64,000 bases of DNA from Methanobacteriota archaeon (GTDB lineage: Archaea; Thermoplasmatota; Poseidoniia; Poseidoniales; Poseidoniaceae), in NCBI GenBank assembly GCA_018659375.1, contig JABJMO010000002.1, positions 76,373 to 140,372 on the forward strand. The letters run 5' to 3'. The notes beneath the pieces were generated by a model that searched no databases, was not told where the DNA came from, and saw only the letters and a program-made list of their open reading frames with translations. Each line of letters begins with the position of its first letter. The stretch's first letter is position 1. Shown here one piece after another: positions 21,477 through 55,154 of the stretch. The position numbers were made by a program, and so were the translations under genes.

Positions 21477-22151
21477 ATGTCCAACGACTTCTATTGGTTT
21501 GTCATTTTAGGATTGTGGTCGATCATAGTTGTATTTGGCATAAAACCATTTTATCACTACCTTAGAAAGCAGGGCTCAGAACACATGGTTGCGGTATATT
21601 ATAATCGAAAAGTTGCTCATATGCTGGCTGGTGGTGTGCCAATAATAGCCGCTCCAATGGTCTTTGAAAACCCATTTTGGGTTTTGGTTGGAGGGATATT
21701 GGGATGTTTAGGCTTAGCTTTAACCCATCTTACTGACCGACGATTGTGGTGGATGCAAACAGATCAAAATATGAATGATGCATCTTTCGCCTTGATGTTA
21801 GGAATTTCAGTTTATGCTATTTGGGAGTATAGTAACGAGCCTTGGTTAGCAATACTACCAGCACTCTACATGGCCTTTGGAGATGGAGTCACCGGAATTA
21901 TAAGAAATAAAATGTTCCAAAAAAGAACAAAAAGTGCTTGGGGAAATGTTGGAATGGCAATATTGTGCTTACCGTTGGGTTACTTCTTTGGACAGTTGGC
22001 AGAACCAGAAATTCCGTTGTGGGGGCTAATTTCAGGTGTTGTAGCGTCCTATGTAGAGAGATATGAATTTGGTTTCATAGATGATAATATTCTCATAGTG
22101 TTATTTTCAAGTCTAGTGTTAGTAATTGGTCTAAATATTGGGCCGATATAG
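21477..22151 (+). CDS. CTP-dependent polyprenol kinase family membrane protein (dolichol/phytol kinase-like)
   Basis: Polytopic membrane protein. NRKVAHMLAG, AFGDGVTGIIRNK....KSAWGN and VERYEFGFIDDNILI resemble the dolichol kinase / VTE5 family motifs. Confidence 0.55.
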   Translation: MSNDFYWFVILGLWSIIVVFGIKPFYHYLRKQGSEHMVAVYYNRKVAHMLAGGVPIIAAPMVFENPFWVLVGGILGCLGLALTHLTDRRLWWMQTDQNMNDASFALMLGISVYAIWEYSNEPWLAILPALYMAFGDGVTGIIRNKMFQKRTKSAWGNVGMAILCLPLGYFFGQLAEPEIPLWGLISGVVASYVERYEFGFIDDNILIVLFSSLVLVIGLNIGPI

Positions 22152-26478: not shown

Positions 26479-27315
26479 CTAAACTTTTGGGCACGAGATT
26501 TTGTACGGACACCGGATACAATAATTGCTTGATTTGGCAAATGGTAATTTATTTGGGTTCATGGTTTTCACAAATTCATTTTGTAGTAAGTTCATATTGT
26601 GGGCATCCTTTTCTAGCAATTGTTTTGATTCTTGCAGCATTTTTTGACTCGGCATAATTGAATAATTCCTCCACTTGCCATTATTATAGAATAGCCCATG
26701 GATAGCAAACTTCTGTTCAATATTTGGCAAATATTGATTATATCTTGACCATAACAACATCGAACATAACTCTAAATCAACATATGGCTGGTTTTTTTCT
26801 GATTGAAAGTTTAGTCTAACTAAATGCCATTTTGACTTATACCGATAAACTATGTCTGGAGAGCAGTAGACCTCAATATGACCAAACATGACCGGTTTAA
26901 TCCGGTCGTGGAAACTCCATTCTTTGATAGTACCATTAACGATTTTAGTAATGATTGAATTACCTAATATTTTTTTAATTCGGATAAATGCATACAAAAT
27001 TAATTTATTCCTTTTCTTGTTGGTTATTTTCTCATAGGTTATACCAAAGGAAATCAATTGGCTAGTTAATTCAAATCTGATTCTAGATTGAATTAGTTTT
27101 TCACTCCAACTAACTCCTCTGTGTAAATCAGTTAATAATTCGAAAAATACGCTTCTTGAGGTACTTATCATCAAATCCCATGGTGAACTATACTTTTTTT
27201 TGTTGTTGATCCAAGTTTTATTGTTATTGTGAACATACTTTATAGCATATCTTCGAGCACAGTTAGTAAATATCTTTCTTCTTGTGATACTCCATCGTGT
27301 CGTAGCTTCAATCAT
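26479..27315 (-). CDS. PD-(D/E)XK (Cas4/RecB-like) nuclease-fold protein with 4-Cys Fe-S signature
   Basis: N-terminal ...FTNCARRYAIKY and C-terminal YCIRCPYKISCPK give the Cas4/AddB-type C...CxxCx5C pattern. Central ..SPDIVYR....HLVRLNF..EK and ELCSMLLW blocks. Very K/N/I-rich. Confidence 0.55.
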   Translation of the reverse strand: MIEATTRWSITRRKIFTNCARRYAIKYVHNNNKTWINNKKKYSSPWDLMISTSRSVFFELLTDLHRGVSWSEKLIQSRIRFELTSQLISFGITYEKITNKKRNKLILYAFIRIKKILGNSIITKIVNGTIKEWSFHDRIKPVMFGHIEVYCSPDIVYRYKSKWHLVRLNFQSEKNQPYVDLELCSMLLWSRYNQYLPNIEQKFAIHGLFYNNGKWRNYSIMPSQKMLQESKQLLEKDAHNMNLLQNEFVKTMNPNKLPFAKSSNYCIRCPYKISCPKV

Positions 27316-27352: not shown

Positions 27353-29674
27353 TCATAACAGTCCGACGCTTATACTTGTTAAAATCGAGTTGATTGCTAC
27401 CCATATTGCCAATGGTAGAATACACCAGCCGACAAATTGAGTAAATGATTCAGCACCAAATCTGCCAAACAGTCTTGAAATTGGTCCACCAATAGCCGCA
27501 ATAATTCTAATTGATAAAATCGCTAATCCACCCATTAGAAGAATTAGTATTAATGATAAAAGTGATCGTAAAATCCCGGCAAAGCCACTGAGCATTGCTG
27601 CGCCAATTGCTTGAGGGAATAACGCAGGGAATGCAAGAATTCCAAACCAGCCAAACCAAATACCTAACAATACATCTCTTTCCATGTCTTCCAGAGGCCG
27701 CCAATCTTGGAAATGTTTAGGATATAGTTGATGAATAAATCCAGCTAATATTGTGGCTTCATACGGTTTACCGTTCTTAGCGGTGAAGAATGCCATTTCA
27801 ACAAACCAAAACATCATCAAGATGTCCATGTAAAACAACAATCCTGAACCAATAGGCAATATTGTGAGGATTAGTGTTGGTAAATTTACCAGTAAGATTC
27901 CAGCAGCCCCAGCACCAATAATCGAGGCCCATAATGAACCTGGAGGTACTGGTTCATCAGGTGGAGTCCATCCTTCTCTGGGTAGAGCTATGAAGAATAA
28001 GAATAATCCAGGGCCAACTAGCAGCGCAAAATATGGTGCAAGGTTTTGAGCTCCTCCCGATGGTATGGCGTCAATAGCTTCACTAATATCATCAGAATAA
28101 GCGACTGGTGATTTACTAAAAGTCACATGCATTGCTCTATCGATGACCAACACCGAGTCAGAAACACCGTTAGGTAAAGTCTCGGCAAATTGTCCATTCT
28201 GGTCCAACAAAATTGGCCATGTTGTGTTTAATTGAGTGCGCATTTGTATTAAGTCTGAGGTTAAAGGATTAGTTCCAGATATAATGTGTATGATTGCTAC
28301 ATCGTCGCCATAACTCTCTAAAGTCCGGTTGAATTGATTACTTTGTTCAATAAAATTTTCTGACGCAGGCAAACCAACACCGATTACCAAAGCATCCTTG
28401 CCATCAAATAGTTCATCAATTGTGTAAGAGTTTTCATTTTCATCATACAATTCAGCGTTAGAGATTCTGGTATTGTCGTAAATAGCAGCATCTGCTCCCA
28501 GATTATTCTGACTAAATGCAGTTGGAATAAATAATAACATCATTACCAAGAGCGCGCCTAAAATCGGTGCGGGAATTAAGAGTCCTTGATTAAATGCGTT
28601 ACCAACAAATAAAAGCAGTGCAAGCACCGTTGTGATGGTCAAAAATAGTTTAGCGTTAGCAAACCCATTATCTTCGTCTACAACTTCAAATCTGAGAATC
28701 CCCAACGCGTGACAATCACTGTTTAAGTCGCCATGAACTGTTTTTATACAAATTTGTAAGTTATATTCTCCGCTGTCAAGAGTTTCTTTGCCAGACCAAA
28801 CCAGAACGGATTTATTCTCAGTAATTTGTCTTTCAAGCATTGATTTTCCAGCAGAGTTCTCAATCATATCATCATTATCTAATGATATACGATCATATTT
28901 GCTGAGTGGTCCCCAAATTTCCCACTTAGTTTCTTTGATGTCTTCAGCCCCCCACGGAAGGATTGGATCTAATTCGATGTGTGGTATATTTGAATTATCA
29001 ACAACCATGTTCATTTCTGGCTGGTATAATTGGCCAACTATCAAAATACCGCCTGAATTTTGTGGTTCAGGGCCACCACCCCATTGAATCATAACACTAG
29101 ACCCTAAGCAGTTATGAACTCCTGAAAGAGTTAATTGAAAAGTATCTCCGGGGCTTGCAGTAATGTTAACATCATTTACCGGTCCAGAAAAATTCAAAGC
29201 AGATGAAGAACCGATTTCGTCGACAATTTCAGTTACGGATTCTTGGTAAATCTGTTGTCCTGCTAAAGATACTGTGTAGGATAAAGTGGTACTTGCATCT
29301 GAAATACCAAGACTCGTGCTTTGTTGTCTGACACATGTTTGTGGGCCGACGCTATCATCTAGATAGACTGAAAAGTATACACTCATCTTCACACTTTGAG
29401 TAAAACCGTGTTGTATTGGTTCACTTTGGATAGAAAATATGTCGCCGTTGAATAATGGGTCTAAACTAATTCCACCTTCTGTTTGGTCTGGTTTCTCTCT
29501 TTGAAGTATCGCTGTCTGTTCAGTGTCACCTTCGACAAATAAGTGCTCAACAGGATTAATTTCCCAGTCAATATATCCTGGTTGGTATGAATCATCTTTG
29601 GCTGAAACACCGTTAGAGCCAATAACTCCGACAAGTAAAATTAGCAATAAAATGCTAATGATACGCTTGCCCAT
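27353..29674 (-). CDS. large polytopic membrane protein with signal peptide and extracytoplasmic domains
   Basis: Signal peptide MGKRIISILLLILLVGVIGSNGVSA, a roughly 330-aa exported domain, TM helices, a second soluble domain and a multi-TM C-terminus. No family recognised. Confidence 0.6.
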   Translation of the reverse strand: MGKRIISILLLILLVGVIGSNGVSAKDDSYQPGYIDWEINPVEHLFVEGDTEQTAILQREKPDQTEGGISLDPLFNGDIFSIQSEPIQHGFTQSVKMSVYFSVYLDDSVGPQTCVRQQSTSLGISDASTTLSYTVSLAGQQIYQESVTEIVDEIGSSSALNFSGPVNDVNITASPGDTFQLTLSGVHNCLGSSVMIQWGGGPEPQNSGGILIVGQLYQPEMNMVVDNSNIPHIELDPILPWGAEDIKETKWEIWGPLSKYDRISLDNDDMIENSAGKSMLERQITENKSVLVWSGKETLDSGEYNLQICIKTVHGDLNSDCHALGILRFEVVDEDNGFANAKLFLTITTVLALLLFVGNAFNQGLLIPAPILGALLVMMLLFIPTAFSQNNLGADAAIYDNTRISNAELYDENENSYTIDELFDGKDALVIGVGLPASENFIEQSNQFNRTLESYGDDVAIIHIISGTNPLTSDLIQMRTQLNTTWPILLDQNGQFAETLPNGVSDSVLVIDRAMHVTFSKSPVAYSDDISEAIDAIPSGGAQNLAPYFALLVGPGLFLFFIALPREGWTPPDEPVPPGSLWASIIGAGAAGILLVNLPTLILTILPIGSGLLFYMDILMMFWFVEMAFFTAKNGKPYEATILAGFIHQLYPKHFQDWRPLEDMERDVLLGIWFGWFGILAFPALFPQAIGAAMLSGFAGILRSLLSLILILLMGGLAILSIRIIAAIGGPISRLFGRFGAESFTQFVGWCILPLAIWVAINSILTSISVGLL

Positions 29675-34774: not shown

Positions 34775-37111
34775 ATGGACTGGTCAACGGACCCAAAGAT
34801 GCTAGAAGGTAGAGCCTTTTACAAACTGGGCGAATCGATTTTCGATCACAAAAGGAAGGTCCTAGTTATTGGAATTTTATCGTGTATGTTGTTAGGATCG
34901 TTAATCTCTATGGGTCCAAATTGGGCCGAGTCTTGGGGTGAAGGTGATTTGGAATCTGTAGAAGCAGGTGATCTCAAGGACAGCGCTTTTGCTTCTGAGG
35001 AAGAAGGAGTTGAGAGGTTCACGCTGTTAATCAATCATCCAACATTAGACGACTCGTCCCCCATATGGCAGCAAGCTGTGACCGATGCGCTAGCAGACTT
35101 CATTGAAATGGAGGATGTCGCAATTGAATACTCTTGGGATACAACAGGCGACAAGAGAGACAAATTTATTGTTGAAGATGAAGATGGTTTTTGGGCCAAA
35201 AACGTCGTAACAATTTACCTTGACAGGAAAGATGCAAAACAACTGTATTCTGATAACTGGGAAGATATTGATGTTGATGATGAATTCAATTCTTGGAGAA
35301 CTGGCGGAATTGCCATAGATGTGATATTTGACACTAGAATACAAGATGATTTAATCAAGGCTGAGATTATTTCTGGCCCGCTATCAATAATTATTTTGGG
35401 TATCGTCTTTGGTACAGTAGTGGCAGCATTATTGCCTATAGGTGTTGCAGTTTTGACAGTCATTTCTGCAATGGGAGTTACTATTTGGCTTTCAAACGTA
35501 ACAGATGTTACCCAATACGCTCTAAACATAATTACCTTGATTGGGATTGGTGTTTCAGTTGACTACTCGTTATTTATTGTTAATCGGTTTAGAGAGGAAC
35601 TAAACCAGGGCAGGGACATCAGAACTTCGACTGCAATCTCAGTCGCAACTGCAGGTAAAGCCATATTCTTCAGTGGAATAACTGTAGCAATTGGCCTAAT
35701 GGGTATGTTATTCTTTGAAAATACGGGATTGCCAAGCTTAGGAATAGGGGGTACCCTATCAGTGAGTATCGCAATGGTATTTTCAGTAATAGTGTTACCT
35801 GCAATCTTGGCTATGCTCGGACACCGGGTTTTCAAGGGTAAAATACCGTTTTCATTTAGTACTGAAAACGAAAAAGAAGACGGCGCTTGGGCCAAAATCG
35901 CCAACACTGTAATGGCTCGCCCGTGGGCAGTTCTCATACCCACATTAGTAATCTTGTTAGGCGCAGGTTTGCCATTTTTACAAGCAGATTTTTCAATAGC
36001 ATCCCGAGACGCATTGCCTCCGGATGACGAGACAAGAATCGGTTTCGAACTAATGGATGAAAAATGGCCAGAAGAAGCAGTTAATGCGGCTATGATTGTA
36101 ATTGATTTTGATGGTCAAGACCCACTTCAAGAAAGTAATTTACTTGCAGTGCATCGTTGGATGGTAAATTACATCGAGGAAGACAGGGTACTCGACGGTT
36201 TTGGTTATGCGTTACCAAACTCCAGTATGAATGAATCAGAAGTTCTAGAATTTTGGCAAACTCCAGATGAATTTCTGGATAACGAAACTTTAGCAACCAG
36301 AGAATATGTTCGTGCCCAATTTTTGTCTGATAATATTACTTACCTAGTATTTTCACTTGATGGTTCAATCACTGGTGAAACAAGTAGAGAGTTTGTTTCA
36401 GATTTAAGATCAGATCGTTCAGAGCTGCTCGAGGAACTAAACATCGGTGATGATGGAGTCTTGAAAGTTGCAGGATTTGCTGCATATAGTTTGGATGTAT
36501 TAGATGCTATTATCGAAAATCTTCCAATTGCTTTAGCATTCATTCTAATTGCTACCATGGTGCTCATATTTATTCAGGTAAGAAGTGTAATAATTCCAAT
36601 TAAAGCCATCATAATGAATATTTTATCAATTTCGGCATCTTTTGGAATGTTAGTCTTTGTTTTCCAGTGGGGTTATGGGGCAGATTTGCTAAACTTCACA
36701 CCTCAACCAATCGAAACCACCAATCCAATAATCATGTTCTGTATCGTATTTGGTCTGTCTATGGATTATGAGGTTCTAATGTTGTCAAGAATTCATGAGG
36801 AATGGGAGCGAACAGGAGATAACACATTGGCAGTAGCTAACGGTTTACAGAAGACAGGTAGACTAATCACCGGTGCTGCTGCTATTATGGTTGTAGTATT
36901 CAGTGCCTTTGGATTATCATCGATTGTGATTTTGAAACAAATCGGTTTTGGCCTGGCTTTAGCGATTTTAATTGATGCCACAATTGTTAGAGCGCTAGTT
37001 GTGCCAGCAACTATGAGGCTGATGGGCAAAGCAAATTGGTGGTCACCAAAATGGTTGGATAATTTGTTCCCATCAAGACCACATGAAGTATCAGACAAGT
37101 CAGAAGAGTAA
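34775..37111 (+). CDS. MMPL/RND-superfamily transporter
   Basis: Two repeats, each a large loop followed by 5-6 TM helices. GIGVSVDYSLFIVNRFREEL and GLSMDYEVLMLSRIHEEW are MMPL hallmark segments. Confidence 0.85.
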   Translation: MDWSTDPKMLEGRAFYKLGESIFDHKRKVLVIGILSCMLLGSLISMGPNWAESWGEGDLESVEAGDLKDSAFASEEEGVERFTLLINHPTLDDSSPIWQQAVTDALADFIEMEDVAIEYSWDTTGDKRDKFIVEDEDGFWAKNVVTIYLDRKDAKQLYSDNWEDIDVDDEFNSWRTGGIAIDVIFDTRIQDDLIKAEIISGPLSIIILGIVFGTVVAALLPIGVAVLTVISAMGVTIWLSNVTDVTQYALNIITLIGIGVSVDYSLFIVNRFREELNQGRDIRTSTAISVATAGKAIFFSGITVAIGLMGMLFFENTGLPSLGIGGTLSVSIAMVFSVIVLPAILAMLGHRVFKGKIPFSFSTENEKEDGAWAKIANTVMARPWAVLIPTLVILLGAGLPFLQADFSIASRDALPPDDETRIGFELMDEKWPEEAVNAAMIVIDFDGQDPLQESNLLAVHRWMVNYIEEDRVLDGFGYALPNSSMNESEVLEFWQTPDEFLDNETLATREYVRAQFLSDNITYLVFSLDGSITGETSREFVSDLRSDRSELLEELNIGDDGVLKVAGFAAYSLDVLDAIIENLPIALAFILIATMVLIFIQVRSVIIPIKAIIMNILSISASFGMLVFVFQWGYGADLLNFTPQPIETTNPIIMFCIVFGLSMDYEVLMLSRIHEEWERTGDNTLAVANGLQKTGRLITGAAAIMVVVFSAFGLSSIVILKQIGFGLALAILIDATIVRALVVPATMRLMGKANWWSPKWLDNLFPSRPHEVSDKSEE

Positions 37112-37153: not shown

Positions 37154-38404
37154 ATGACCGACCCAGTCTACAGTCCAGATGGAAATTACATTTGGAGCGG
37201 TGCAGAGTGGATACCAGCACCACCAAAAAGTAATCAAATTTTGAACCTAAAAGATTCGGTAATTGGTGGAGACGTTGTTCACAATACGGTAATCAACAAT
37301 GATGTTGATGCGGTAACAAATGCTGTAATTACTGCTCTACAACGCCTTGGAATGGTCAACAAAGATGAAACAACTTCCCAAATTGAGGAAATCATAGATA
37401 TGCCGATTTTGGCTAAATTAGAAGTTGGAATGCATGTCGAATATTTCAGTCCAACTAATGAGCGTTGGCTGGATAGGTGTACAATAACTAGGGTTAATCG
37501 CGATGGAAGTTATGATGTTGATGTTCCTAAAACCAGTGGTATAGAATCAAAGCAAAATTTGGATATTGGTGAAGAGCCAAGCAATATTCGTCGCGCTGAT
37601 GATGCTTTGAACAAAGGGGATAGAGTCCTAGTAAATTGGAAGGACTATGGTACTTTTTTCCCTGGTGTAATTGCTGAGGTACAACCTCATCACACATACA
37701 TGATACACTTTGATGATGGTGATGTGGAATCAAGAGTTCCTCCTTCTAGAATTGCCAAGCAAGCAGATTCACAAGCAACACAAGATTATGTTGAGCAAAT
37801 TTCTCAAGAAGAACAAGAACTAATTCAATCATTCAAAGTATTTGATGAGGGCAACACCGGAACTATCCATGCCAGTAAAATGTTCAAAATACTCACAGAA
37901 ATGGGTGATCCACTCGATATTTCTGAAGCAGAGGAAATGTTCTATGAAATGGGTATTTCACTTGATTCTGAAATAAACTACAAAGAATTAGCTAAAATCA
38001 TGGTTCGACCTTTTGGAACGAAATCTGAAGTTATAATCCAAGATGCCGAAATAACAGGTAATTCATTACACGGTTTTGTTTATGCGCATCCCATGCTGGG
38101 CGACGCTCAACTAAAATCTTCTGATATCCTGAAGATAAGTTATGATAATCACGCAACTGCGAGAGTTGAGACAAATAATACAATCTACATTGTTGGCCCA
38201 ACTGGTTGGAGAATTAGACCAAATGACCATCCGTTTAACAAACCAGATTACACTACAGGCCAACAAGTAAAAATTGAATGGAGAGGTAGTTGGTGGGACG
38301 GATTGATTCGTGAAGTAAGGGGAGATAAGTACCTAATCCACTACACTGGGTTTGATTCTAGTTGGGATGAACTAGTAGATGAGAGCAGAATTAGCAATCG
38401 TTAA
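37154..38404 (+). CDS. multi-domain protein: three Tudor/Agenet-like modules plus an EF-hand-like pair
   Basis: Tudor-like segments at about 37415-37528, 37610-37756 (GDRVLVNWKDYGTFFPGVIAEV..HTYMIHFDDGD.E.V) and 38252-38392 (GQQVKIEWRGSWWDGLIREVRGDKYLIHYTGFD). EF-hand-like pair at about 37805-38008 (FKVFDEGNTGTIHASKMFKILTEMGDPLDISEAEEMF...INYKELAKIM). Confidence 0.6.
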   Translation: MTDPVYSPDGNYIWSGAEWIPAPPKSNQILNLKDSVIGGDVVHNTVINNDVDAVTNAVITALQRLGMVNKDETTSQIEEIIDMPILAKLEVGMHVEYFSPTNERWLDRCTITRVNRDGSYDVDVPKTSGIESKQNLDIGEEPSNIRRADDALNKGDRVLVNWKDYGTFFPGVIAEVQPHHTYMIHFDDGDVESRVPPSRIAKQADSQATQDYVEQISQEEQELIQSFKVFDEGNTGTIHASKMFKILTEMGDPLDISEAEEMFYEMGISLDSEINYKELAKIMVRPFGTKSEVIIQDAEITGNSLHGFVYAHPMLGDAQLKSSDILKISYDNHATARVETNNTIYIVGPTGWRIRPNDHPFNKPDYTTGQQVKIEWRGSWWDGLIREVRGDKYLIHYTGFDSSWDELVDESRISNR

Positions 38405-38445
38405 TCTAAACATGTGCTTATATCCTAACCAAGTAACCCTAAAGC

Positions 38446-39999
38446 ATGTCTAAAGAACCAGTAATCAAGAAGTGGTTCTTTGTTTGTTATGACCAATTAA
38501 ATCACGATTTATTCCCGTGGTCTTTCGGCAATCGTGCAGAAAACGGTCTAATTTTTATCGAATCGAAAATTAAAGGTGACTCGTTAAACTATCACCAACA
38601 AAAATTAGCATTATTACTCTCTAACATGCGACATTTTGCCAAAGAGTCAGAAGATTTAGGCCATCCGGTAAGGTATTACCACACTGATGGTAATTACTCT
38701 GATTTGTTGACAGAAATAACTAGTCAGTTAGGACCAATAAATTTGGTCGAGCCTGCGGAGAGGAGCATGCGAATGGAAGTTAAACCGCTAGTAGAAAGGG
38801 AGAGACTGCAAGTGCACCAACATGATGGATGGTTGACAAAGCGTGATTGGTTTAGCGAAACAGTTGGCACAGAGCCTCCGTTTAGAATGGACAGATTCTA
38901 CAAGAGAGTAAGAAAAGAAACCGGCGTTTTGATGCAAGATGGGAAACCAATGGGCGGTAAATTTAGCTTTGATGCTGAGAATCGTTTGCCATGGAAAGGC
39001 GACCCTGAGACACAATCCGACATTGACTTCGAAGTTGACCAAATCGATATGGAGGTAATGGAACTAGTTAGGTCAAAGTTTGCTGATCACCCAGGTAATT
39101 GCGATCTTAGTAAGGTCCCAACTACCTTAGAACAAAATCACCAGTTGCTAAAATGGGCTATGGACAATATGCAATATTTTGGCCCATATGAAGATGCAAT
39201 GAGTTCTAAAAGCCGGTTTTTATTCCATTCAAAATTAGCGATATCGACCAATCTCTCAAGACTATCAGCCAAAGAGATAGTAGATTCTGCTTTAATGACA
39301 GGAGCTCCATTAAATTGTCTTGAAGGATTTTATCGACAACTAATTTGGCGTGAATATGTTAAGCATGTTCATGATGTTACCGACGGTTTTCGGTCCCTAG
39401 AAGTATATGATATTCAATCTAATCAACCAAACTTCTTGCAACAAAACAATCCCCTGCCTGATGCCTTTTGGGGGAAGAAATCAGGATTTAATTGCTTGGA
39501 TACAGTAGTTGAATCGGTTATGGATGAGGGGTGGACCCATCACATTCCAAGATTGATGGTGTTGAGTAATTTTGCCAGCTTATTAGATATCAATCCAAGA
39601 AAACTGACTACATGGTTTCATGAAGCCTTTATCGATGCTTATGACTGGGTGGTTGAGCCAAATGTGCTTGGCATGGGCACCTATTCTTTAGGCTCTGCAA
39701 TGATGACTAAACCCTACGTTTCGGGTACTCCATACATCAACAAAATGTCAGATTACTGTAAAAGTTGTAAATTCAACCCGAAAAAAGATTGCAAGGTTTC
39801 AAATCTTTATTGGGCATTTCTCGAGCGACATAAGGATTCATTCGAGGGAAATATTAGGATGGCTATGCCACTTCGAAGTCTAGCAAAGCGCAGTGATGAC
39901 AAGAAGCGAGCAGATATAGAAGCATTTCAGGACATAAATGAGGCATTGACTAACGGCCAAGAATATCTGCCATACGTTGAGATGAAACCATTAATCTAG
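38446..39999 (+). CDS. FeS-BCP type cryptochrome/photolyase family protein (COG3046, (6-4) photolyase-like)
   Basis: NCLEGFYRQLIWREY and SDYCKSCKFNPKKDCKVSNLYWAFL supply the four Fe-S cysteines. The overall layout is that of the PhrB/CryB class. Confidence 0.82.
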   Translation: MSKEPVIKKWFFVCYDQLNHDLFPWSFGNRAENGLIFIESKIKGDSLNYHQQKLALLLSNMRHFAKESEDLGHPVRYYHTDGNYSDLLTEITSQLGPINLVEPAERSMRMEVKPLVERERLQVHQHDGWLTKRDWFSETVGTEPPFRMDRFYKRVRKETGVLMQDGKPMGGKFSFDAENRLPWKGDPETQSDIDFEVDQIDMEVMELVRSKFADHPGNCDLSKVPTTLEQNHQLLKWAMDNMQYFGPYEDAMSSKSRFLFHSKLAISTNLSRLSAKEIVDSALMTGAPLNCLEGFYRQLIWREYVKHVHDVTDGFRSLEVYDIQSNQPNFLQQNNPLPDAFWGKKSGFNCLDTVVESVMDEGWTHHIPRLMVLSNFASLLDINPRKLTTWFHEAFIDAYDWVVEPNVLGMGTYSLGSAMMTKPYVSGTPYINKMSDYCKSCKFNPKKDCKVSNLYWAFLERHKDSFEGNIRMAMPLRSLAKRSDDKKRADIEAFQDINEALTNGQEYLPYVEMKPLI

Positions 40000-40015
40000 T
40001 CTGGGTGGAACGTTC

Positions 40016-41098
40016 GTGAAGGTTACAGATTCTATCGATTTAGGGCGCGGTTTTACTGCCAAAAATCGAACTCTTTTAGCGGCGATGACCAACAAGCAAA
40101 GCAACAATGACGGGACATTGTCTGCTGAAGAAATAAAATGGCTTGTTAGAAGGGGCCAAGGTGGATTTGGAATCACTACTACTGCGGCAGCGAATGTCAC
40201 TAAAGATGGGCAGGGCTGGGAAGGTGAAATGGGTGTCTGGAGCGACAACCATATTCCCGGCTTGACAGAATTAGCTGAAAAGCTAAATGAAACAGGTACT
40301 ATTTCATTAGTCCAGTTATTTCATGGCGGCATGAGAGCTCCGCAAAGAATAACTGGTGTTAGACCAATTTCTGCTAGTGAAAATACTGAGTCAGGAATGA
40401 ATGGAGTTTACACTAAGGCAATGACAGAATTAGAAATCAAATCCATGATTCAATCCTTTATTGATGCTGCTATCAGGTGTAAAAAAGCCGGGTTTCACGG
40501 TATAGAATTACATGGTGCTCATTCTTACCTGATTTGCCAATTTTTAGGCCAAGAAACTAATCGAAGAACCGATAAATGGGGCGGTGATATTACCGGAAGA
40601 AGTAGATTCTTGAGTGAAATAATACGTTCTGTTCGTAGTGCAGTGGGTGAAGATTTCCTCATTGCAGTTCGAATTTCTCCCATCATTGAAAAAGCCGGAA
40701 TTTACCTACATGATAGTCTTGAACTAGCCAAGATTATTTGTGAATTGGAAATAGATATGTTGCACATTTCTTGCTGGGACGTATTCCAACCGGTTGATGA
40801 TAGTAATGATAATTCGCTTACCAAACGCTTCCGCCAAGTCATCCCAAAAGGCATGCCACTAATCTCAACTGGAGCTGTATGGGATGGTAAAGATGCGCAG
40901 TGGTTGTCAGACGAAGGGGCCGATATAGTTGGAGTTGCCAGAGTTGGAATCGCCCATCCAGATTGGCCAAAACTCTTGATAGATTCCGATTATCAGCCTC
41001 AAATGCCGCCATTCACTGTTGAACATTTAGCAAATGTAGATCTAAGTCCAGTTTTCATTGAATACATGAAGCGGTGGAAAAACTTCGTAATTCTATAG
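40016..41098 (+). CDS. NADH:flavin oxidoreductase, Old Yellow Enzyme family
   Basis: NRTLLAAM, QLFHGG, ELHGAHSYLICQFL and WGG..TGRSRF blocks. GTG start lies 7 nt after GGGTGG. Confidence 0.85.
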   Translation: MKVTDSIDLGRGFTAKNRTLLAAMTNKQSNNDGTLSAEEIKWLVRRGQGGFGITTTAAANVTKDGQGWEGEMGVWSDNHIPGLTELAEKLNETGTISLVQLFHGGMRAPQRITGVRPISASENTESGMNGVYTKAMTELEIKSMIQSFIDAAIRCKKAGFHGIELHGAHSYLICQFLGQETNRRTDKWGGDITGRSRFLSEIIRSVRSAVGEDFLIAVRISPIIEKAGIYLHDSLELAKIICELEIDMLHISCWDVFQPVDDSNDNSLTKRFRQVIPKGMPLISTGAVWDGKDAQWLSDEGADIVGVARVGIAHPDWPKLLIDSDYQPQMPPFTVEHLANVDLSPVFIEYMKRWKNFVIL

Positions 41099-41209: not shown

Positions 41210-41815
41210 ATGATAAGCATTTTCAATGATAATACAGTTGATGAACATCGGATGATTGGCCGGTATATGGCGGATTCAGGTATGTTGGGTGATACGCCTG
41301 TGCCAACAATTGAACCTCACATACCAGAAGGTGCGATAGTAGACTCATTATCAGTCCTTTCAGGCGTCACTGATGCAGTATTTATGCCGTGGATTGAACA
41401 AAGGATAGAACTTATTTGGTTAGAACCGATTGATGACCGATTAGGTATGACAAGATTCGAAGAGGGTTCTGCAGAGTTGAACCGTAGAAGAAAGCTAAGA
41501 CTCGACCCAGGTGTTGTGACAATTGGATTACATCCAGCCTTACTTGAAGATGAAGTGCTGTACAAACATACCTTTGTTCATGAATTTCTGCATGCTGCTG
41601 GTTTAACATTGCATACTTCGCAACATGATGAGTTGACAAATAAAGTCGCACCAATGCCAAAAATGTCGGAATCGCCATTATTACAGCGATTAAGAAATTC
41701 AGTACTTGGAGATCTAAAGGTGAAATCATGGACGTGTAGTCACTGTGGCTATAGTTGGGATAGAACTACTGTTAGAAAGCCCACTAGATGTTACAAATGT
41801 GCCCGCCCTCTTTGA
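41210..41815 (+). CDS. SprT-like zinc metalloprotease-fold protein with C-terminal zinc ribbon
   Basis: HTFVHEFLHAAG (HExxH) followed by CSHCGYSW...RCYKCARPL (CxxC...CxxC). Confidence 0.5.
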   Translation: MISIFNDNTVDEHRMIGRYMADSGMLGDTPVPTIEPHIPEGAIVDSLSVLSGVTDAVFMPWIEQRIELIWLEPIDDRLGMTRFEEGSAELNRRRKLRLDPGVVTIGLHPALLEDEVLYKHTFVHEFLHAAGLTLHTSQHDELTNKVAPMPKMSESPLLQRLRNSVLGDLKVKSWTCSHCGYSWDRTTVRKPTRCYKCARPL

Positions 41816-44588: not shown

Positions 44589-45743
44589 ATGCAGATGGGT
44601 GGGTTTAGCGATCGAGCATTGGCAATACAACCGACAGGGGTCCGCAAAATGTTTGATCTTGCTGGCGATGATGTTATTTCTTTTGGACTTGGAGAACCAG
44701 ACTTTCAACCGCCAAAAGTAGCAATCGAAGCCTTTCATCAAGCTATGGTTGACGGCCATAACAAGTATACGACAACTGCTGGTTTACCTGCATTAAGAGA
44801 AAAAATTGCTCAATCTTGGGAGTCTTACCAACAAGGTATGGCTGCAGACAATGTCTGCATAACTATGTCTGGGACAAACGCCCTCCTCAATATATTCCTG
44901 ACGTTGGTAAATCCAGGCGATAATGTGCTGCTGCCAGAGCCATACTTTCCTTTGTATGGTCCAGATGTCTCTATTTGCGGTGGCGAAGATAGATATTATC
45001 CTTGCAAATTTGACAACGAATTTATTCCTCAACTATCTGATTTAGAACCATTAATCGATGAAAATACAGTGGCTATTTTGTATAACTTCCCAAGTAATCC
45101 TACTGGGGGTACTTTAGATTCCCGCCAACGTGATGAGTTGCTCGATTTCGCCAAAAAACATGATTTATGGATTATTAGCGATGAAGTCTATGATCGAATC
45201 GTCTTTGAAAGCAAACACATATCGTTCATGGGCACGGATTATGATAAGGTCCTCGTAGTGAACTCTTTTTCCAAGACATTTGCCATGACTGGTTGGCGAA
45301 TTGGCTATATCATTTCTGACAATCTTGAGGCTATGAAACAAATCATCAAGATGCAATATTACATTACCGCCTGTTCTAATGATGCTATGCAATACGCCGT
45401 ACTTGCAGCACTTGAGCACGCAGCAGATTATCCCGAGATAATTGCTAAAGAGTTCCAACAACGCTGTGATTTGATTGTCGGACGGCTAAATGCTATGCCT
45501 GGGGTTGAATGCCATAAGCCTAAAGGTGCAATATATGTATTTCCTAAGGTTAAAGTCGAAGGAATGAACTCTGAAGAAATTGCGTTGGAATTGCTAAAAG
45601 ATGGGGTACTATGTTCTCCTGGTTCTGCCTTTGGCCCATCTGGCGAAGGGCATCTTAGATTTGCTTATACGATCTCCAAGGAGGATATCGAAATAGGTAT
45701 GGATAAGGTTGAACAATCGCTGAAAAGGCTAAATGGTTTGTGA
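44589..45743 (+). CDS. class I/II PLP-dependent aminotransferase (aspartate aminotransferase-like)
   Basis: NSFSKTFAMTGWRIGY (PLP lysine), NPTG and LRFAY blocks. Confidence 0.88.
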   Translation: MQMGGFSDRALAIQPTGVRKMFDLAGDDVISFGLGEPDFQPPKVAIEAFHQAMVDGHNKYTTTAGLPALREKIAQSWESYQQGMAADNVCITMSGTNALLNIFLTLVNPGDNVLLPEPYFPLYGPDVSICGGEDRYYPCKFDNEFIPQLSDLEPLIDENTVAILYNFPSNPTGGTLDSRQRDELLDFAKKHDLWIISDEVYDRIVFESKHISFMGTDYDKVLVVNSFSKTFAMTGWRIGYIISDNLEAMKQIIKMQYYITACSNDAMQYAVLAALEHAADYPEIIAKEFQQRCDLIVGRLNAMPGVECHKPKGAIYVFPKVKVEGMNSEEIALELLKDGVLCSPGSAFGPSGEGHLRFAYTISKEDIEIGMDKVEQSLKRLNGL

Positions 45744-45747
45744 TATT

Positions 45748-46362
45748 ATGTCCTTTATTAGTTCACTGATGTATTTTTTTGCTGGATTTATTATCGCTTT
45801 TTTATTTCCTAGAATTCCAATTCTAATGATAACTCGAGGTAAGGGTTTCAATCTTGCTTTTCCCGAGCATCCAGCCCCAGTTCCTCTATCGCCCAAATTA
45901 ACTCAACGGGTACTCCACATGCGGATGATTTATTGGATGGGATTTGTCGTTTCGCTCGTTCCTTTGGTGTTTGGTCTTGCTTCAATAAAATGGGGTAATG
46001 CCGCCTTTGGATTTGGTCTGTGGATTTCTTCTGGCTGGTTTATCTTATCACGTTTACAGACATTTATCGGAGGTCCAAAGCCGCCATGGACTCTAGATAT
46101 GGCGCAACAGTTACAAATCATAATGGATGAAACAAAATCTGTTGAAAATTGTTGTCCAATGCCTGTTGCGGAATGGAGGGTTTTGACGGTATCTTGTGCT
46201 AGATGTGACGCTAAATTATCGGATTTGCCCCGCCCAGATTTAGGAAGAAAGCGGATGGATGGGTTTTTTCTGGGTGGGTTAAGATTATTGATGACCGATG
46301 GTTATCCAGTGATTGATTTTGATAATGACTCAAAAAACAAACTTAGCGATAGTGAAGAATAA
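45748..46362 (+). CDS. hypothetical membrane protein with Cys-containing C-terminal domain
   Basis: 3-4 predicted TM helices followed by CCPMPVAEWRVLTVSCARC. No family recognised. Confidence 0.45.
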   Translation: MSFISSLMYFFAGFIIAFLFPRIPILMITRGKGFNLAFPEHPAPVPLSPKLTQRVLHMRMIYWMGFVVSLVPLVFGLASIKWGNAAFGFGLWISSGWFILSRLQTFIGGPKPPWTLDMAQQLQIIMDETKSVENCCPMPVAEWRVLTVSCARCDAKLSDLPRPDLGRKRMDGFFLGGLRLLMTDGYPVIDFDNDSKNKLSDSEE

Positions 46363-46438: not shown

Positions 46439-47677
46439 ATGGCGGGCAAGGTTCGTAAAAAACCATTCAGTGCTCGCCTGTGGCTTACCTTTGTTGCCTT
46501 ATGCCAGGTTTTCCTTACACCGTTGATTGCTTTTACTTTGACATATTTATTCGAATTCAATATTTTTGGTGAAACAATAAATATTTCATTTCAAAAAGAA
46601 ATGATACCTTGGATTGTTACCGCATCTCTCATGTATGGTATGCTGGCCTTATTCCTTGCACTAGCTATTGGGGGATACACTCCTATAAGGGTTGTAGAAA
46701 GTGGAGGCTGGAAGAAGTTTTTCAAGTTCTCGCGTTCTCCAAGAAATGCTACACAGCGTCGGTTGGCAAGACAAAATTATGCCCACTCCCCTCACGGTCA
46801 GATCAGTGTACTTGCTCATCGCAGGTGGCAAGAAGGCCACTCCATTATCTCAACTCATGGTGGTTTGATATTGCTAGCAGTCCCCTTCCAAGTCTTACTT
46901 GCGACATTGCCATTAGCCATGGTATTAATGGTCCCAGATTCAGTAATGAGAGAAAATAGGCGCTTGGAGTTGGCCTTAATTCTCTATGTTTTCACGCTAA
47001 GTATTGTCATGAAATACTATCCAAGGATCGCAAATAAGTATATTGGGATTGCTTCGTTCACTAGGAAGTGGTTAATTTCGATGACCAAAATTTCATGGTT
47101 AGCGCCAGTTCTTATTCTTTGGTTGATGGGTAGAATGGCTAGTGTAGTTGTCTTGGGTTGGATTGGGTCTGATATTGATTTGAACATAGACTTGGAGAAA
47201 TCATTCTTCGAAACAACGCTAAATATCGGTTCAATACCAAAAACTTCATTTTTAGATTTAATCGCCGCATTGGCAGTAATTCCTCTCGCTACTTTCACTA
47301 CTCTAGCAGTATTAGGGGCCGGGTCTGGTGACCCACCTGAATGGATGGTTGAGCGCCTTGAATTGAATGCCGATAGTGATGGAAGTTCGATGATTAATGC
47401 AGTTGGAACTTTATCCAACGCAGTTGTATCTGGAGAGATAAATCAGATTTTCAGCTCAGAAGAGTCAACAAATCATACCGAAGAAATAGCAGAAGTAACT
47501 GATGAGCAAAACGAATATAATCAATCAGTTAGTGAATCAGAATCTAATGACGAAATTAGTTCAGTTGGCGAAGAATCTGAAGTAGATTTCAATGACTTTT
47601 TTGCTGGTGACTTTGGACAAGGCGAAGGTGAGGAATCTCACAACAAACCTTCTATTACTGGATTTAAACTAGAGTGA
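46439..47677 (+). CDS. hypothetical polytopic membrane protein with acidic C-terminal tail
   Basis: Multiple hydrophobic helices. C-terminal E/D/S-rich tail. No family recognised. Confidence 0.45.
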   Translation: MAGKVRKKPFSARLWLTFVALCQVFLTPLIAFTLTYLFEFNIFGETINISFQKEMIPWIVTASLMYGMLALFLALAIGGYTPIRVVESGGWKKFFKFSRSPRNATQRRLARQNYAHSPHGQISVLAHRRWQEGHSIISTHGGLILLAVPFQVLLATLPLAMVLMVPDSVMRENRRLELALILYVFTLSIVMKYYPRIANKYIGIASFTRKWLISMTKISWLAPVLILWLMGRMASVVVLGWIGSDIDLNIDLEKSFFETTLNIGSIPKTSFLDLIAALAVIPLATFTTLAVLGAGSGDPPEWMVERLELNADSDGSSMINAVGTLSNAVVSGEINQIFSSEESTNHTEEIAEVTDEQNEYNQSVSESESNDEISSVGEESEVDFNDFFAGDFGQGEGEESHNKPSITGFKLE

Positions 47678-52986: not shown

Positions 52987-55146
52987 ATGCCAGAAGTCGC
53001 TGATAGGAATCTTACCATCTATTTTGGTTCCCAAACAGGCAATGCAGAGGAACTTGCAAGTAAAACTGCTAAGTTAGCCAAAAAATTCAATCTCTCTGCG
53101 AAGGTAGTTGACCTTGGAGATATAAAACCAGAAGATTTTACTTCGTCAAAAAGAGCGCTCATCATCACTTCTACTTGGGGAGAAGGCGAGATGCCGGATA
53201 ACTCAGAATCTATTTGGGCAGCAACCTGTGAATCAAATCCAAATTTGTCTACAGTAAATTTCAGCATCTGTGCAATTGGTGACACATCATATGATGAATT
53301 CTGTAAGGCTGGATTAGATTGGGATGAGAAGTTCAAACAGCTTGGCGCCAACTGCGTTCATGATATTCAACTGTGTGATGTAGAATATGAACCCGAATGG
53401 CAAACATGGGCCAATTCAGCATTACAAGCAATGTCTGATGTAGACACTGGAACTGTAATGGTTGATGAGTCAGAAGCAACGGCACAAGTAGAAACAGCAT
53501 CCGCCCCAGTTGCCTCAGGAAGTGCCAGTGCAGGACTATCTTCTCTGTTTGAAGGTGACAGATCTCTAGCCATTTTATTTGGATCACAAACCGGAAATGC
53601 TGCTGCTCTGGCTGAAAAGACAGCGAAAATGGCTGCTGATTATGGATTGATTCCTACCGTTTACGATATGGATGGATTTGATGCAGCAACATTAGCAACT
53701 CACAAACGCACTCTGATAATCACTTCAACATGGGGCGAAGGAGAAATGCCTGATAATGCTGAATCACTATGGCAGGCGGTAAATTCTAACTCACCTTCAC
53801 TCTCTGGAGTAAATTTTAGTATTTGTGCAATCGGGGACACAGCTTATGACGAGTTTTGTAAAGCTGGAACTGACTGGGATGACAAATATGAATCGCTAGG
53901 GGCTAGTAGAGTCCACCAAATACAACTGTGCGATGTTGACTTTGAACCGCCATTTGTCACATGGGTTGCTCAGGCTTTGCCAAAGATTGCCTGTGTTGAC
54001 TCATCAGGAACCCTACAAATCGAGCTACTCGACGAAATGATTGCTTATGGTTCAAGTGGAGATGACGAAGTAGTTTCAGGAGATTTTGCTCCTGGGGTTG
54101 TGGATGAAACAGAACTAACTGTAACAGTCGAAATCTTCCGTTACTGCCCAAGTGCAGCCGAGTCCGGATGGGATACAATCGTATGTTCACTTCCTGCTAA
54201 TGCCTCCATACAAGACATGTTACTTGCCATCAAGAATGATGTTGACGGAAGTCTGACTTTCAGGATGGGTGACGGCAGTGGTACTGCAAGTTGTGGAATT
54301 AGAATCAACGGCAGACTTGTTCTCGCAGATACAACATCAATTGGAAGCGTTACTAAAGCAGATGGAAGATTAAAAATCGAACCACTATCTGGATACCCGG
54401 TCATTAGAGATTTGATGGTAGACTATTCGAAGTTTGAAGAAAACCGCATGAAAGCTAAGCCATGGATGCAATCTAATCCACGTGAGGGAGAGTACCTGTT
54501 AAACGGTATGGCGGTTGGAACAATGTCCAAAGAACAAGCGTCTAAACTACATTCTTCAAGTGACATTAAATCGTATTATTTACTTCACTCAATGTCTGAT
54601 ACAGTTACTTATGATTCAAAATACGAAGGCCCCGGAATTCATCTACAAAGATGGAATCGAGTCATCGACCCAAGGTCTAGCGAGACATTCAAGAACTCAC
54701 TTATTGATTCGCTAAATAACTCAACTGGAGTTTGGGGAGAAGCCGATCTAGCATCGATTGCTAGGTATGGGCAAGAGGGTAAAACAGCCTCATCCGGTCT
54801 CAATGACGTTCGCGCCTACATCCTAAACCAAACCAACTACAGAGGTCCACATGGAAGACTGGTCAAGTGGTACGGAAGAAGCGTCAAATGGACTGGTAAA
54901 TTGAACGAAACTACGCTATATCGCCAAGTTCTTGGCCCTATTGGCCTGCTGAGTAACATTTTCGATGGCGTTTCTGCTCGAATGGTACTAGGATTCACTA
55001 GAACTGGTGGGCCTCCGATTAGAAGTCTACAAGCATTGGTATTACCACCTTCAGGTATTGGTAAAATACCAAATATGTTCAATTCCAAAGTTAAGAACCA
55101 TCACCAAGTTGTCGGATTGTTTAACGAAATTGACCAGAGGTTTTGA
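52987..55146 (+). CDS. fusion protein: two flavodoxin-like FMN domains plus a cysteine-depleted SdhB/FrdB-like domain plus an unknown C-terminal extension
   Basis: Flavodoxin 1 at about 53011-53428 and flavodoxin 2 at about 53566-53983 (GSQTGNA...STWGEGEMPDN...FSICAIGDT.YDEFCKAG). The SdhB-like region at about 54100-54830 is colinear with E. coli SdhB but lacks the Fe-S Cys blocks. An alternative GTG start exists at 52978. Confidence 0.8.
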   Translation: MPEVADRNLTIYFGSQTGNAEELASKTAKLAKKFNLSAKVVDLGDIKPEDFTSSKRALIITSTWGEGEMPDNSESIWAATCESNPNLSTVNFSICAIGDTSYDEFCKAGLDWDEKFKQLGANCVHDIQLCDVEYEPEWQTWANSALQAMSDVDTGTVMVDESEATAQVETASAPVASGSASAGLSSLFEGDRSLAILFGSQTGNAAALAEKTAKMAADYGLIPTVYDMDGFDAATLATHKRTLIITSTWGEGEMPDNAESLWQAVNSNSPSLSGVNFSICAIGDTAYDEFCKAGTDWDDKYESLGASRVHQIQLCDVDFEPPFVTWVAQALPKIACVDSSGTLQIELLDEMIAYGSSGDDEVVSGDFAPGVVDETELTVTVEIFRYCPSAAESGWDTIVCSLPANASIQDMLLAIKNDVDGSLTFRMGDGSGTASCGIRINGRLVLADTTSIGSVTKADGRLKIEPLSGYPVIRDLMVDYSKFEENRMKAKPWMQSNPREGEYLLNGMAVGTMSKEQASKLHSSSDIKSYYLLHSMSDTVTYDSKYEGPGIHLQRWNRVIDPRSSETFKNSLIDSLNNSTGVWGEADLASIARYGQEGKTASSGLNDVRAYILNQTNYRGPHGRLVKWYGRSVKWTGKLNETTLYRQVLGPIGLLSNIFDGVSARMVLGFTRTGGPPIRSLQALVLPPSGIGKIPNMFNSKVKNHHQVVGLFNEIDQRF

Positions 55147-55154
55147 GTGATAAA

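Follow-up and report, generated by a model that had tools for sequence, protein, structure and literature searches.

The locus and the encoded protein

The DNA analysed here (the window) is a 64,000 nucleotide stretch of the genome of a Poseidoniaceae archaeon (assembly GCA_018659375.1, contig JABJMO010000002.1, positions 76,373 to 140,372 of the forward strand). It carries an open reading frame (ORF) encoding a 416 amino acid (aa) protein, which an initial annotation of the sequence had described as a eukaryote-like chromatin reader and calcium sensor built from three Tudor/Agenet-like modules and an EF-hand pair. The ORF lies at exactly the coordinates first noted, and the segments that had been quoted as Tudor/Agenet and EF-hand were present within it and matched their families above chance. 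Alignments of the family together with an AlphaFold2 (AF2) model resolved seven parts: an N-terminal motif (N-motif), the second half of an N-terminal module (N-module), the putative barrel T1, the barrel T2, an EF-hand pair, a beta domain and the barrel T3 (Table 1). The N-module (residues 1-68) and the beta domain, which are the most family-specific parts of the protein, had been overlooked in the initial annotation. The full-length AF2 model had a predicted local distance difference test (pLDDT) score of 73 and a predicted template modelling (pTM) score of 0.47. Conservation is given below for family alignments of 24 and 68 diverse members; the EF-hand loops were surveyed in 121 members (loop 1) and 117 members (loop 2).

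Table 1. Parts of the 416-aa protein and genes adjoining it, in window coordinates. MGIIa, family a of the Marine Group II (MGII) archaea.
Feature	Residues	Position (bp)	Strand	Basis or remark
Whole gene, ORF of 416 aa		37154..38404	+	
N-motif, SPDG-x3-W-x-G-x2-W-I-P-x-P-P	1-24	37154..37225	+	Near-invariant in family alignments
N-module, second half: invariant QDSVIGGDVVHNTVINND stretch, then amphipathic helix AVT.AVI.AL	28-68	37235..37357	+	Invariant columns, AF2
T1, putative Tudor/SH3-like barrel	~90-147	37421..37594	+	AF2 only: five strands, pLDDT ~80
T2, Tudor of 53BP1/KDM4A/PHF20 type	~153-202	37610..37759	+	Pfam, PDB profile matches
EF-hand pair, calmodulin C-lobe-like	~207-284	37772..38005	+	phmmer, Pfam, AF2, loop survey
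Beta domain, seven strands, family-specific	288-362	38015..38239	+	AF2, alignments
T3, chromo-barrel (Tudor-knot/Agenet/MRG-Eaf3 type)	~366-416	38249..38401	+	Pfam, PDB profile
MMPL-family transporter gene, upstream		34775..37111	+	Pfam MMPL, 1.8e-66; conserved in MGIIa
Photolyase-related (DPRP/FAD_binding_7) and Old Yellow Enzyme genes, downstream		38446..41098	+	Pfam; conserved in part of MGIIa

Tudor-type barrels

Analysis of T3 as a single sequence revealed a match to Pfam Agenet between residues 375 and 409 (E 1.4e-7, 32.3 bits against a cut-off of 27), and the window protein scored 18.9 bits with Tudor-knot, under the cut-off of 20.8. A T3 family profile searched against PDB matched Eaf3 (1.2e-8, 38 bits), Arabidopsis MRG2 (1.8e-7), MRG15 (4e-7), the Agenet domains of FXR/FMRP (5e-6) and MOF/Tip60. 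The candidate cage motif of T3 is W376/W380 ... Y397-x-G-F400-x-S-S-W404, and W376, W380, Y397, F400 and W404 were all invariant or at least 90% conserved (n = 68). An alignment placed Y397-x-G-F400-x-S-S-W404-D-E-W-V of T3 on Y81-x-G-W84-x-S-S-W88-D-E-W-V of Eaf3, where we take Y81, W84 and W88 to be three of the four cage residues from Eaf3/MRG15 structures. The stretch Y-x-G-[W/F]-x-S-S-W-D-E-W-V is near-identical between T3 and the eukaryotic MRG15/Eaf3/MSL3 chromo-barrels, which are readers of methylated lysine 36 of histone H3; neither an MRG domain nor a NuA4/Rpd3S context accompanies the barrel in the MGII protein.

T2 as a single sequence matched Tudor_2/Tudor_5 of Pfam between residues 155 and 195 (E ~5e-6), and its family profile searched against PDB matched KDM4A (5e-7), PHF20 (2e-5) and 53BP1 (5e-5). 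An ungapped BLASTP alignment with Tudor-1 of 53BP1 showed 37% identity and paired the candidate cage residues W162, F169, F186 and D188 of T2 with W1495, Y1502, F1519 and D1521, residues that reportedly belong to the 53BP1 cage. W162 and D187-D190 were invariant and F186 was at least 90% conserved (n = 68), and F169 varied between Phe and Tyr. The ungapped alignment keeps the Trp, an aromatic residue, the Phe and the Asp, the last of which contacts dimethyllysine in 53BP1. In contrast to 53BP1 and KDM4A (JMJD2A), the MGII protein is not joined to BRCT or JmjC domains, and T1-T2 was not verified as a tandem or hybrid Tudor.

T2 and T3 were homologous to each other (hhalign probability 92.5%, E 5e-7). 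T1 gave no significant sequence match, its family profile reaching PHF20 in PDB at E 0.44, and a comparison with T2 gave E 0.008 at 5% probability (hhalign). In the AF2 model, DSSP assigned five strands each to residues 94-147, 157-202 and 371-415 (pLDDT 76-88). T1 was deleted in a 358-aa MGIIa subclade (P0059-P0068). T2 and T3 are accordingly placed by sequence in the royal family/Tudor clan (Pfam CL0049), and T1 is not; of the three Tudor/Agenet modules that had been proposed, two are verified by sequence and one, T1, is a structural inference. A Foldseek search with the full model had the SETDB1 triple Tudor and plant AGDP3 as its best matches (E 2e-7 to 3e-7). These are likewise arrays of royal-family barrels, but the likeness is confined to modular design: the TM-scores were low (0.13-0.24), and the MGII protein differs in domain order and inserts.

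The EF-hand pair

Residues 218-284 shared 27 of 67 residues (40% identity) with the C-lobe of calmodulin (phmmer against PDB, E 9e-14), which bears out the light-chain- or centrin-like C-lobe first read into this stretch. EF-hand_7 matched residues 220-283 (E 8e-7), its 29.7 bits falling just under the Pfam cut-off of 30, and the relative P0122 was above the Pfam cut-offs of both EF-hand_1 and EF-hand_7 (36.9 bits with the latter). AF2 placed helices at residues 207-228, 240-250, 256-266 and 276-283, so that the segment has two helix-loop-helix motifs with profile similarity and is an EF-hand pair. The matches of T2, T3 and this pair were specific to the royal family and to EF-hands, and not to the generic SH3-like or KOW folds and non-EF bundle that the initial annotation had named as the alternative.

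A canonical EF-hand loop has 12 residues, with Asp at position 1, Asp, Asn or Ser at positions 3 and 5, Gly at position 6, a hydrophobic residue at position 8 and Glu or Asp at position 12. Both loops of the window protein deviated from this pattern, as had been noticed at the outset: the sequence of loop 1 is DEGNTGTIHASK, where Gly occupies position 3 and Lys position 12, and that of loop 2 is GISLDSEINYKE. The survey of family members showed Lys-12 in loop 1 of 80/121 and a canonical loop 1, such as DKDNSGTINSQE, in 31/121. Loop 2 (GIS.DSEINYKE) had Gly-1 in 117/117 and Ser-6 in 116/117, and was canonical in none of the 117. Loss of Asp-1 or Glu-12 abolishes canonical Ca2+ binding of an EF-hand. 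By these rules, canonical Ca2+ binding is not expected of the window protein, whose loop ligands are lost.

The helix-loop-helix pair is a feature common to the calmodulin C-lobe, the myosin essential light chain and the MGII protein. Compared to calmodulin, the pair of the window protein is single, lies inside a larger protein and has lost its Ca2+ ligands, in which it resembles non-binding light chains. A mode of action like that of such a light chain is more likely, and the calcium sensor of the initial annotation is unlikely in the window genome, judging from its loops. A genuine sensor, in which Ca2+ on the EF pair would switch ligand binding of the flanking barrels, seems very unlikely to us: the calmodulin-like score of the pair, the members with a fully canonical loop 1 and the Pfam matches of P0122 favour it, and the residues at loop 1 positions 3 and 12 in the window protein, the prevalence of Lys-12 and the near-invariant Gly-1 and Ser-6 of loop 2 oppose it. 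Calmodulin proper was rejected as an identity for the protein, which has only one embedded pair and not the four EF-hands, arranged as two lobes, of a stand-alone protein of ~149 aa. Self-methylation of the calmodulin K115 type was also rejected as a source of ligand, the equivalent position being Pro253.

The N-terminal module and the beta domain

The SPDG..W.G..WIP.PP motif mentioned in the initial annotation was present and near-invariant in the family. W14, G16, W19-I20-P21 and P24 never varied in either alignment; S7-P8-D9-G10 and P23 were invariant in the alignment of 24 and showed at least 90% conservation in that of 68. Residues 26-48 had pLDDT <50 in the AF2 model and are predicted to be disordered, and residues 51-64 are predicted to form a helix. 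Pfam and PDB sequence searches with the N-module gave no match.

The N-module was also found at the head of a 219-aa MGII protein (SPDGKMIWSGSEWIPIP...QDSVIMGD) encoded between 1083 bp and 1742 bp (minus strand) of locus L032, ~2 kb upstream of that genome's own Tudor/EF gene. This protein had no Pfam or NCBIfam match. Its translation, read by eye, continues after the N-module with a helical region and ends in a C-terminal hydrophobic helix, so that the product looks tail-anchored. As it recurs at the start of the L032 protein, the N-module is portable, and the tail-anchored appearance of that protein suggests that the module probably faces the cytoplasm. Additionally, a bacterial Ser/Thr kinase (P0143) has a double zinc ribbon, then VQDSVIVGDEVV with a QDSVIVGD motif, which is similar to QDSVIGGDVV of the family, and three T3-like domains at its C-terminus; DSVI.GD may be a short module that turns up repeatedly.

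The beta domain modelled alone with AF2 gave a pLDDT of 92 and a pTM of 0.80. Twenty of its 81 positions were invariant, including H312, D331, E339, W352 and H359, and the invariance of H312, D331, E339 and H359 suggests a ligand or metal site. The domain had no match in Pfam or among PDB sequences, and Foldseek against PDB found nothing significant (best E 0.67). By hhalign the beta domain was unrelated to either T2 or T3, and a cryptic fourth Tudor was therefore rejected. In BFVD the AF2 model of the domain had only weak matches, to small uncharacterised phage proteins of 60-110 aa (E 2e-3 to 3e-2, TM 0.55-0.64); T4-like phage proteins were among them, for example cd.1 of Escherichia phage VR7 and proteins from Acinetobacter phage Acj61 and Klebsiella phage JD18. 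Within the 150 best-scoring of 1.84 billion protein representatives the beta domain was confined to orthologues of the 416-aa protein, with weaker homologues possible below that rank.

Conservation, phyletic range and expression

A total of 350 homologues was obtained, and the best 120 of these were full-length orthologues with 52-96% identity. The named homologues came from Ca. Poseidoniaceae, Thalassarchaeaceae or marine Euryarchaeota metagenome-assembled genomes (MAGs). A scan of GTDB species representatives revealed at least 151 species-level loci with a relative. Among the best 80 of the 151, all titles that name a lineage were Poseidoniales or Marine Group II, and the remaining titles were generic Methanobacteriota, Euryarchaeota or Thermoplasmata MAGs. 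The 416-aa gene is present in both MGII families (MGIIa and MGIIb), and the protein family is specific to MGII archaea (Poseidoniales) and apparently universal there.

Pairwise comparison of the window gene with four orthologues gave ratios of nonsynonymous (dN) to synonymous (dS) substitution of 0.09-0.16, and each domain was below 0.32, which is purifying selection. T1 compared between the window and L006 had dN 0 and dS 0.08, against a gene-wide dS of 0.56; this may be a recombination mosaic inside the gene. The gene was covered by contigs of marine metatranscriptome runs, although these are assembled contigs in which DNA carry-over is possible. One such contig (35586-38073) runs from the upstream MMPL gene into the 416-aa gene and another (38302-40335) from the 3'-end of the 416-aa gene into the DPRP and Old Yellow Enzyme genes. 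The gene is real, expressed and strongly constrained. It is not an orphan: the initial annotation had allowed for a lineage-restricted ORF without conservation, and what was found is lineage-restricted yet strongly conserved.

Neither Pfam nor NCBIfam revealed a catalytic domain in the window protein, and no NCBIfam model for the 416-aa family was found; one NCBI record of the family is titled "Tudor-knot domain-containing protein". By a crude hydrophobicity heuristic the window protein had no signal-peptide-like or transmembrane stretch, and among 120 MGII family members an N-terminal hydrophobic stretch was flagged in two and a transmembrane segment in none.

Longer members of the family were also seen. 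P0054 and P0122 (520-540 aa) have an insert of ~105 aa that separates the beta domain from T3 (NQFYTVQGAGTSKCNGT...WWYLADRNSLD..GDYYRVKS; no Pfam match), and loci L069-L071, L075-L080, L084 and L085 gave matches of similar length. An additional C-terminal barrel was present in the MGIIb members P0086, P0111, P0096 and P0109.

A literature search that combined Tudor with the names of Marine Group II gave no description of the family, and for EF-hands in Poseidoniales it found one paper that mentions Ca-binding families in general terms only. The initial annotation knew of no described archaeal protein of such architecture. The domain families themselves are already known; new are the architecture, its non-secreted archaeal setting and the two extra modules.

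Relatives and origin of T3

A profile of the contiguous beta domain and T3 fragment was searched against the 1.84 billion protein representatives and gave 2187 matches at E up to 1e-3, of which 674 were at E up to 1e-10. The best non-orthologous matches were short proteins with 2-8 tandem T3-like domains, each scoring 62-79 bits. An alignment of T3 with the bacterial protein P0128 showed 46% identity (E 6e-16). A signal-peptide-like N-terminus was flagged in 92/132 T3 relatives with the same heuristic that flagged 2/120 MGII members, and a few of the relatives were fused to caspase-like peptidases, extracytoplasmic function (ECF) sigma factors, a Ser/Thr kinase or ankyrin repeats. Within the 150 best representatives, the pairing of the beta domain with T3 was restricted to MGII, and the EF-hand was not among the 25 most frequent of 36 Pfam families co-occurring in 137 scanned relatives.

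Bacterial chromo-like (Tudor-knot/Agenet-type) domains of secreted proteins have been described, and those with conserved cages were argued to bind methyl-lysine-like peptides (Kaur, Iyer, Subramanian, Aravind 2018; PMC5906684). By sequence, T3 belongs to this family, with which it shares the aromatic cage and the motif W.G.W(Y/W)...Y.IHY.G(Y/F)..SWDEWV...RI. The bacterial domains occur in tandem arrays, and certain MGIIb members likewise have an extra C-terminal copy. The hallmarks of the bacterial proteins, secretion and peptidase fusion, were absent from the MGII protein, which has no signal peptide by the above heuristic, no peptidase domain in Pfam and no sigma-factor or kinase partner. 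Its T3 is instead joined to a 53BP1-type Tudor, a calmodulin-like EF-hand pair and two unique modules. The same paper mentions only "rare cases in euryarchaea", which its supplement does not list.

These relatives bear on two other explanations of the MGII protein. The first is that it is a cell-envelope or extracellular peptide binder, like the bacterial chromo-like proteins, and is exported by a non-classical route. This we regard as remote: the frequent signal-peptide-like N-termini of T3 relatives, their frequent fusion to caspase-like peptidases and the EF-hand fusions reported in extracellular bacterial chromo-like proteins (PMC5906684) point towards it, whereas the family itself, by the same crude heuristic, almost lacks N-terminal hydrophobic stretches and has no transmembrane segment, and it shares its N-module with the L032 protein, whose tail-anchored appearance by eye would put the module in the cytoplasm.

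The second is that a eukaryotic chromatin gene was recently transferred and has retained its eukaryotic role, which is most improbable. Eukaryotic proteins give the best solved-structure matches to T2, to T3 and to the EF pair, the pair scored 54 bits to calmodulin compared to 20.8 bits to the neighbouring 1232-aa EF-hand protein of MGII, and tandem T3-like domains occur in dinoflagellates. However, the top-scoring non-orthologous T3 relatives, so far as examined, show N-termini or fusion partners of bacterial type, and their scores are about double that of Eaf3. Within the 150 best representatives the beta domain and T3 were together in MGII only, and the EF-hand was outside the common partners in the scanned relatives. 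The gene also lies in core chromosome of ordinary GC content, and any transfer must be ancient because both MGII families have the gene. The domain lineage of T3, as judged from sequence, is prokaryotic. Of the eukaryote-like chromatin reader first proposed, the likeness to Eaf3/MRG15 and to KDM4A/53BP1 stands; the nearest T3 relatives are bacterial (62-79 bits against 38 bits), and no link to chromatin emerged.

Dinoflagellate proteins accounted for 2 of 10 T3 relatives that were looked up, P0130 and P0183 (Prorocentrum, Polarella, Gymnodinium). Both have tandem T3-like chromo-barrels with low-complexity linkers; P0151 and P0159 resemble them, and these four have 6-8 T3-like copies each.

Genomic context

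The window is ordinary core chromosome (~40% GC) with electron transfer flavoprotein (ETF) genes, succinyl-CoA ligase, an L4/L2/S3 ribosomal-protein cluster and two tRNAs. In MGIIa the conserved gene order was MsrA - MMPL - 416-aa gene - photolyase-related (DPRP) - Old Yellow Enzyme. The neighbours in MGIIb are different, with a large EF-hand protein encoded upstream and divergently and a glutaredoxin gene downstream. In locus L001 (2107-5805, minus strand) this upstream gene divergently adjoins the Tudor/EF gene and encodes the 1232-aa protein, which has many canonical EF-hands (EF-hand_1 E 3e-25); these are not close to the calmodulin-like pair. A function based on an operon was rejected, as no neighbour was conserved across 80 loci, and for the same reason the context gives no partner.

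Between 32483 bp and 41098 bp the window has a run of repair- or detoxification-type genes that is kept in MGIIa (aldehyde dehydrogenase, MsrA, MMPL, photolyase-related, Old Yellow Enzyme), which lends the context at most a faint stress-repair flavour. The ATGs at 37154 and 38446 are preceded, at a distance of ~20-25 nt, by AT-rich TATA-like elements. No histone-fold gene was found among the 24 window ORFs scanned, with 27 ORFs of at least 150 aa lying outside that scan. Seven sizeable ORFs (201-773 aa) had no Pfam match at the thresholds applied: 41210-41815, 45733-46362, 46439-47677, 27353-29674, 26479-27315, 55143-56012 and 21477-22151.

The context is relevant to a further explanation, that the protein is a nucleic-acid-associated factor whose barrels bind DNA or RNA in place of modified peptides, in the manner of certain Tudor, chromo-barrel and KOW domains, and which would have a role at the nucleoid, possibly in the response to light or oxidative damage. 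The MGIIa gene appears to be co-transcribed with the photolyase-related gene, the Old Yellow Enzyme gene and MsrA, and glutaredoxin lies downstream in MGIIb; however, the neighbourhood is not conserved between the two MGII families. The full-model Foldseek search also matched the KOW arrays of Spt5 in Pol II complexes (E 1e-5 to 1e-4), a likeness found by Foldseek only, since the window protein had no KOW or NGN match in Pfam at E up to 1. T2 resembles the Tudor of the DNA-damage adaptor 53BP1, and some chromo and Tudor domains bind DNA (PMC5906684). Against this, the profiles match methyl-lysine readers specifically, the conserved residues are those of the cage, and the protein is acidic to neutral rather than basic, judged by eye from the translation. 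On balance we consider a nucleic-acid-associated factor unlikely, though worth keeping in view.

Proposed function

The explanation that we favour, tentatively and at a little under even likelihood, is that the 416-aa protein is a non-secreted, presumably cytoplasmic, non-enzymatic and multivalent adaptor. The cages of T2 and T3 would bind short peptide motifs with methylated or otherwise cationic Lys/Arg on partner proteins, and T1 would be a third, degenerate barrel, dispensable in one subclade. The EF pair of the window genome would most likely be a Ca2+-independent module that grips a helix or peptide, like the myosin essential light chains, and it could serve as a Ca2+ switch in those members that have one canonical loop. 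The N-module would probably dock the adaptor to a common partner or site, and the beta domain, which is rich in His, Asp, Glu and Thr, would provide a second ligand site.

Several points weigh against such an adaptor. Methyl-peptide binding by T2 and T3 is predicted from cage conservation, and SH3-like barrels can bind nucleic acids too. The fifth cage position of T2 is Asp and not Tyr as in 53BP1, the invariant D190 replacing Y1523, and T1 has no verifiable cage. Neither a lysine methyltransferase nor a methylated substrate was identified in MGII in this analysis. The pTM of the full-length AF2 model gave no confident inter-domain arrangement, and neighbourhood clustering found no family-wide neighbour, any one being common to at most ~20 of the 80 loci. 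The signal-peptide and transmembrane calls, on which the non-secreted setting depends, are those of a hydrophobicity heuristic and not of a trained predictor.

A more specific proposal concerns the partner. The sole histone of Poseidoniales is an "acidic quadruplet" histone-fold protein that occurs in this lineage alone (PMC13260811). Because the 416-aa protein and this histone-fold protein match in phyletic range, Poseidoniales might have a lineage-specific methyl-lysine reading system in which the 416-aa protein reads the histone-fold protein or another methylated nucleoid protein. We think this quite unlikely. If it were true, a non-Asgard archaeon would have a chromatin-mark reader built from prokaryotic chromo-like domains independently of eukaryotes, and the invariant beta domain would represent a new fold for ligand binding.

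Domains that read methyl marks are usually viewed as eukaryotic innovations (bioRxiv 10.1101/2021.11.30.470311), and the relatives known from prokaryotes are bacterial proteins that are secreted (PMC5906684). The N-module and the beta domain are two new domain families for annotation. The family also opens questions about the role of chromo-like domains before eukaryotes and the role of a Ca-blind calmodulin lobe in a prokaryote. Abundant uncultured archaea of the ocean keep a non-secreted protein with two reader-type barrels under strong selection in every lineage examined, and the 416-aa protein is an expressible reagent with which to ask whether methyl-lysine signalling exists in Euryarchaeota-grade archaea.

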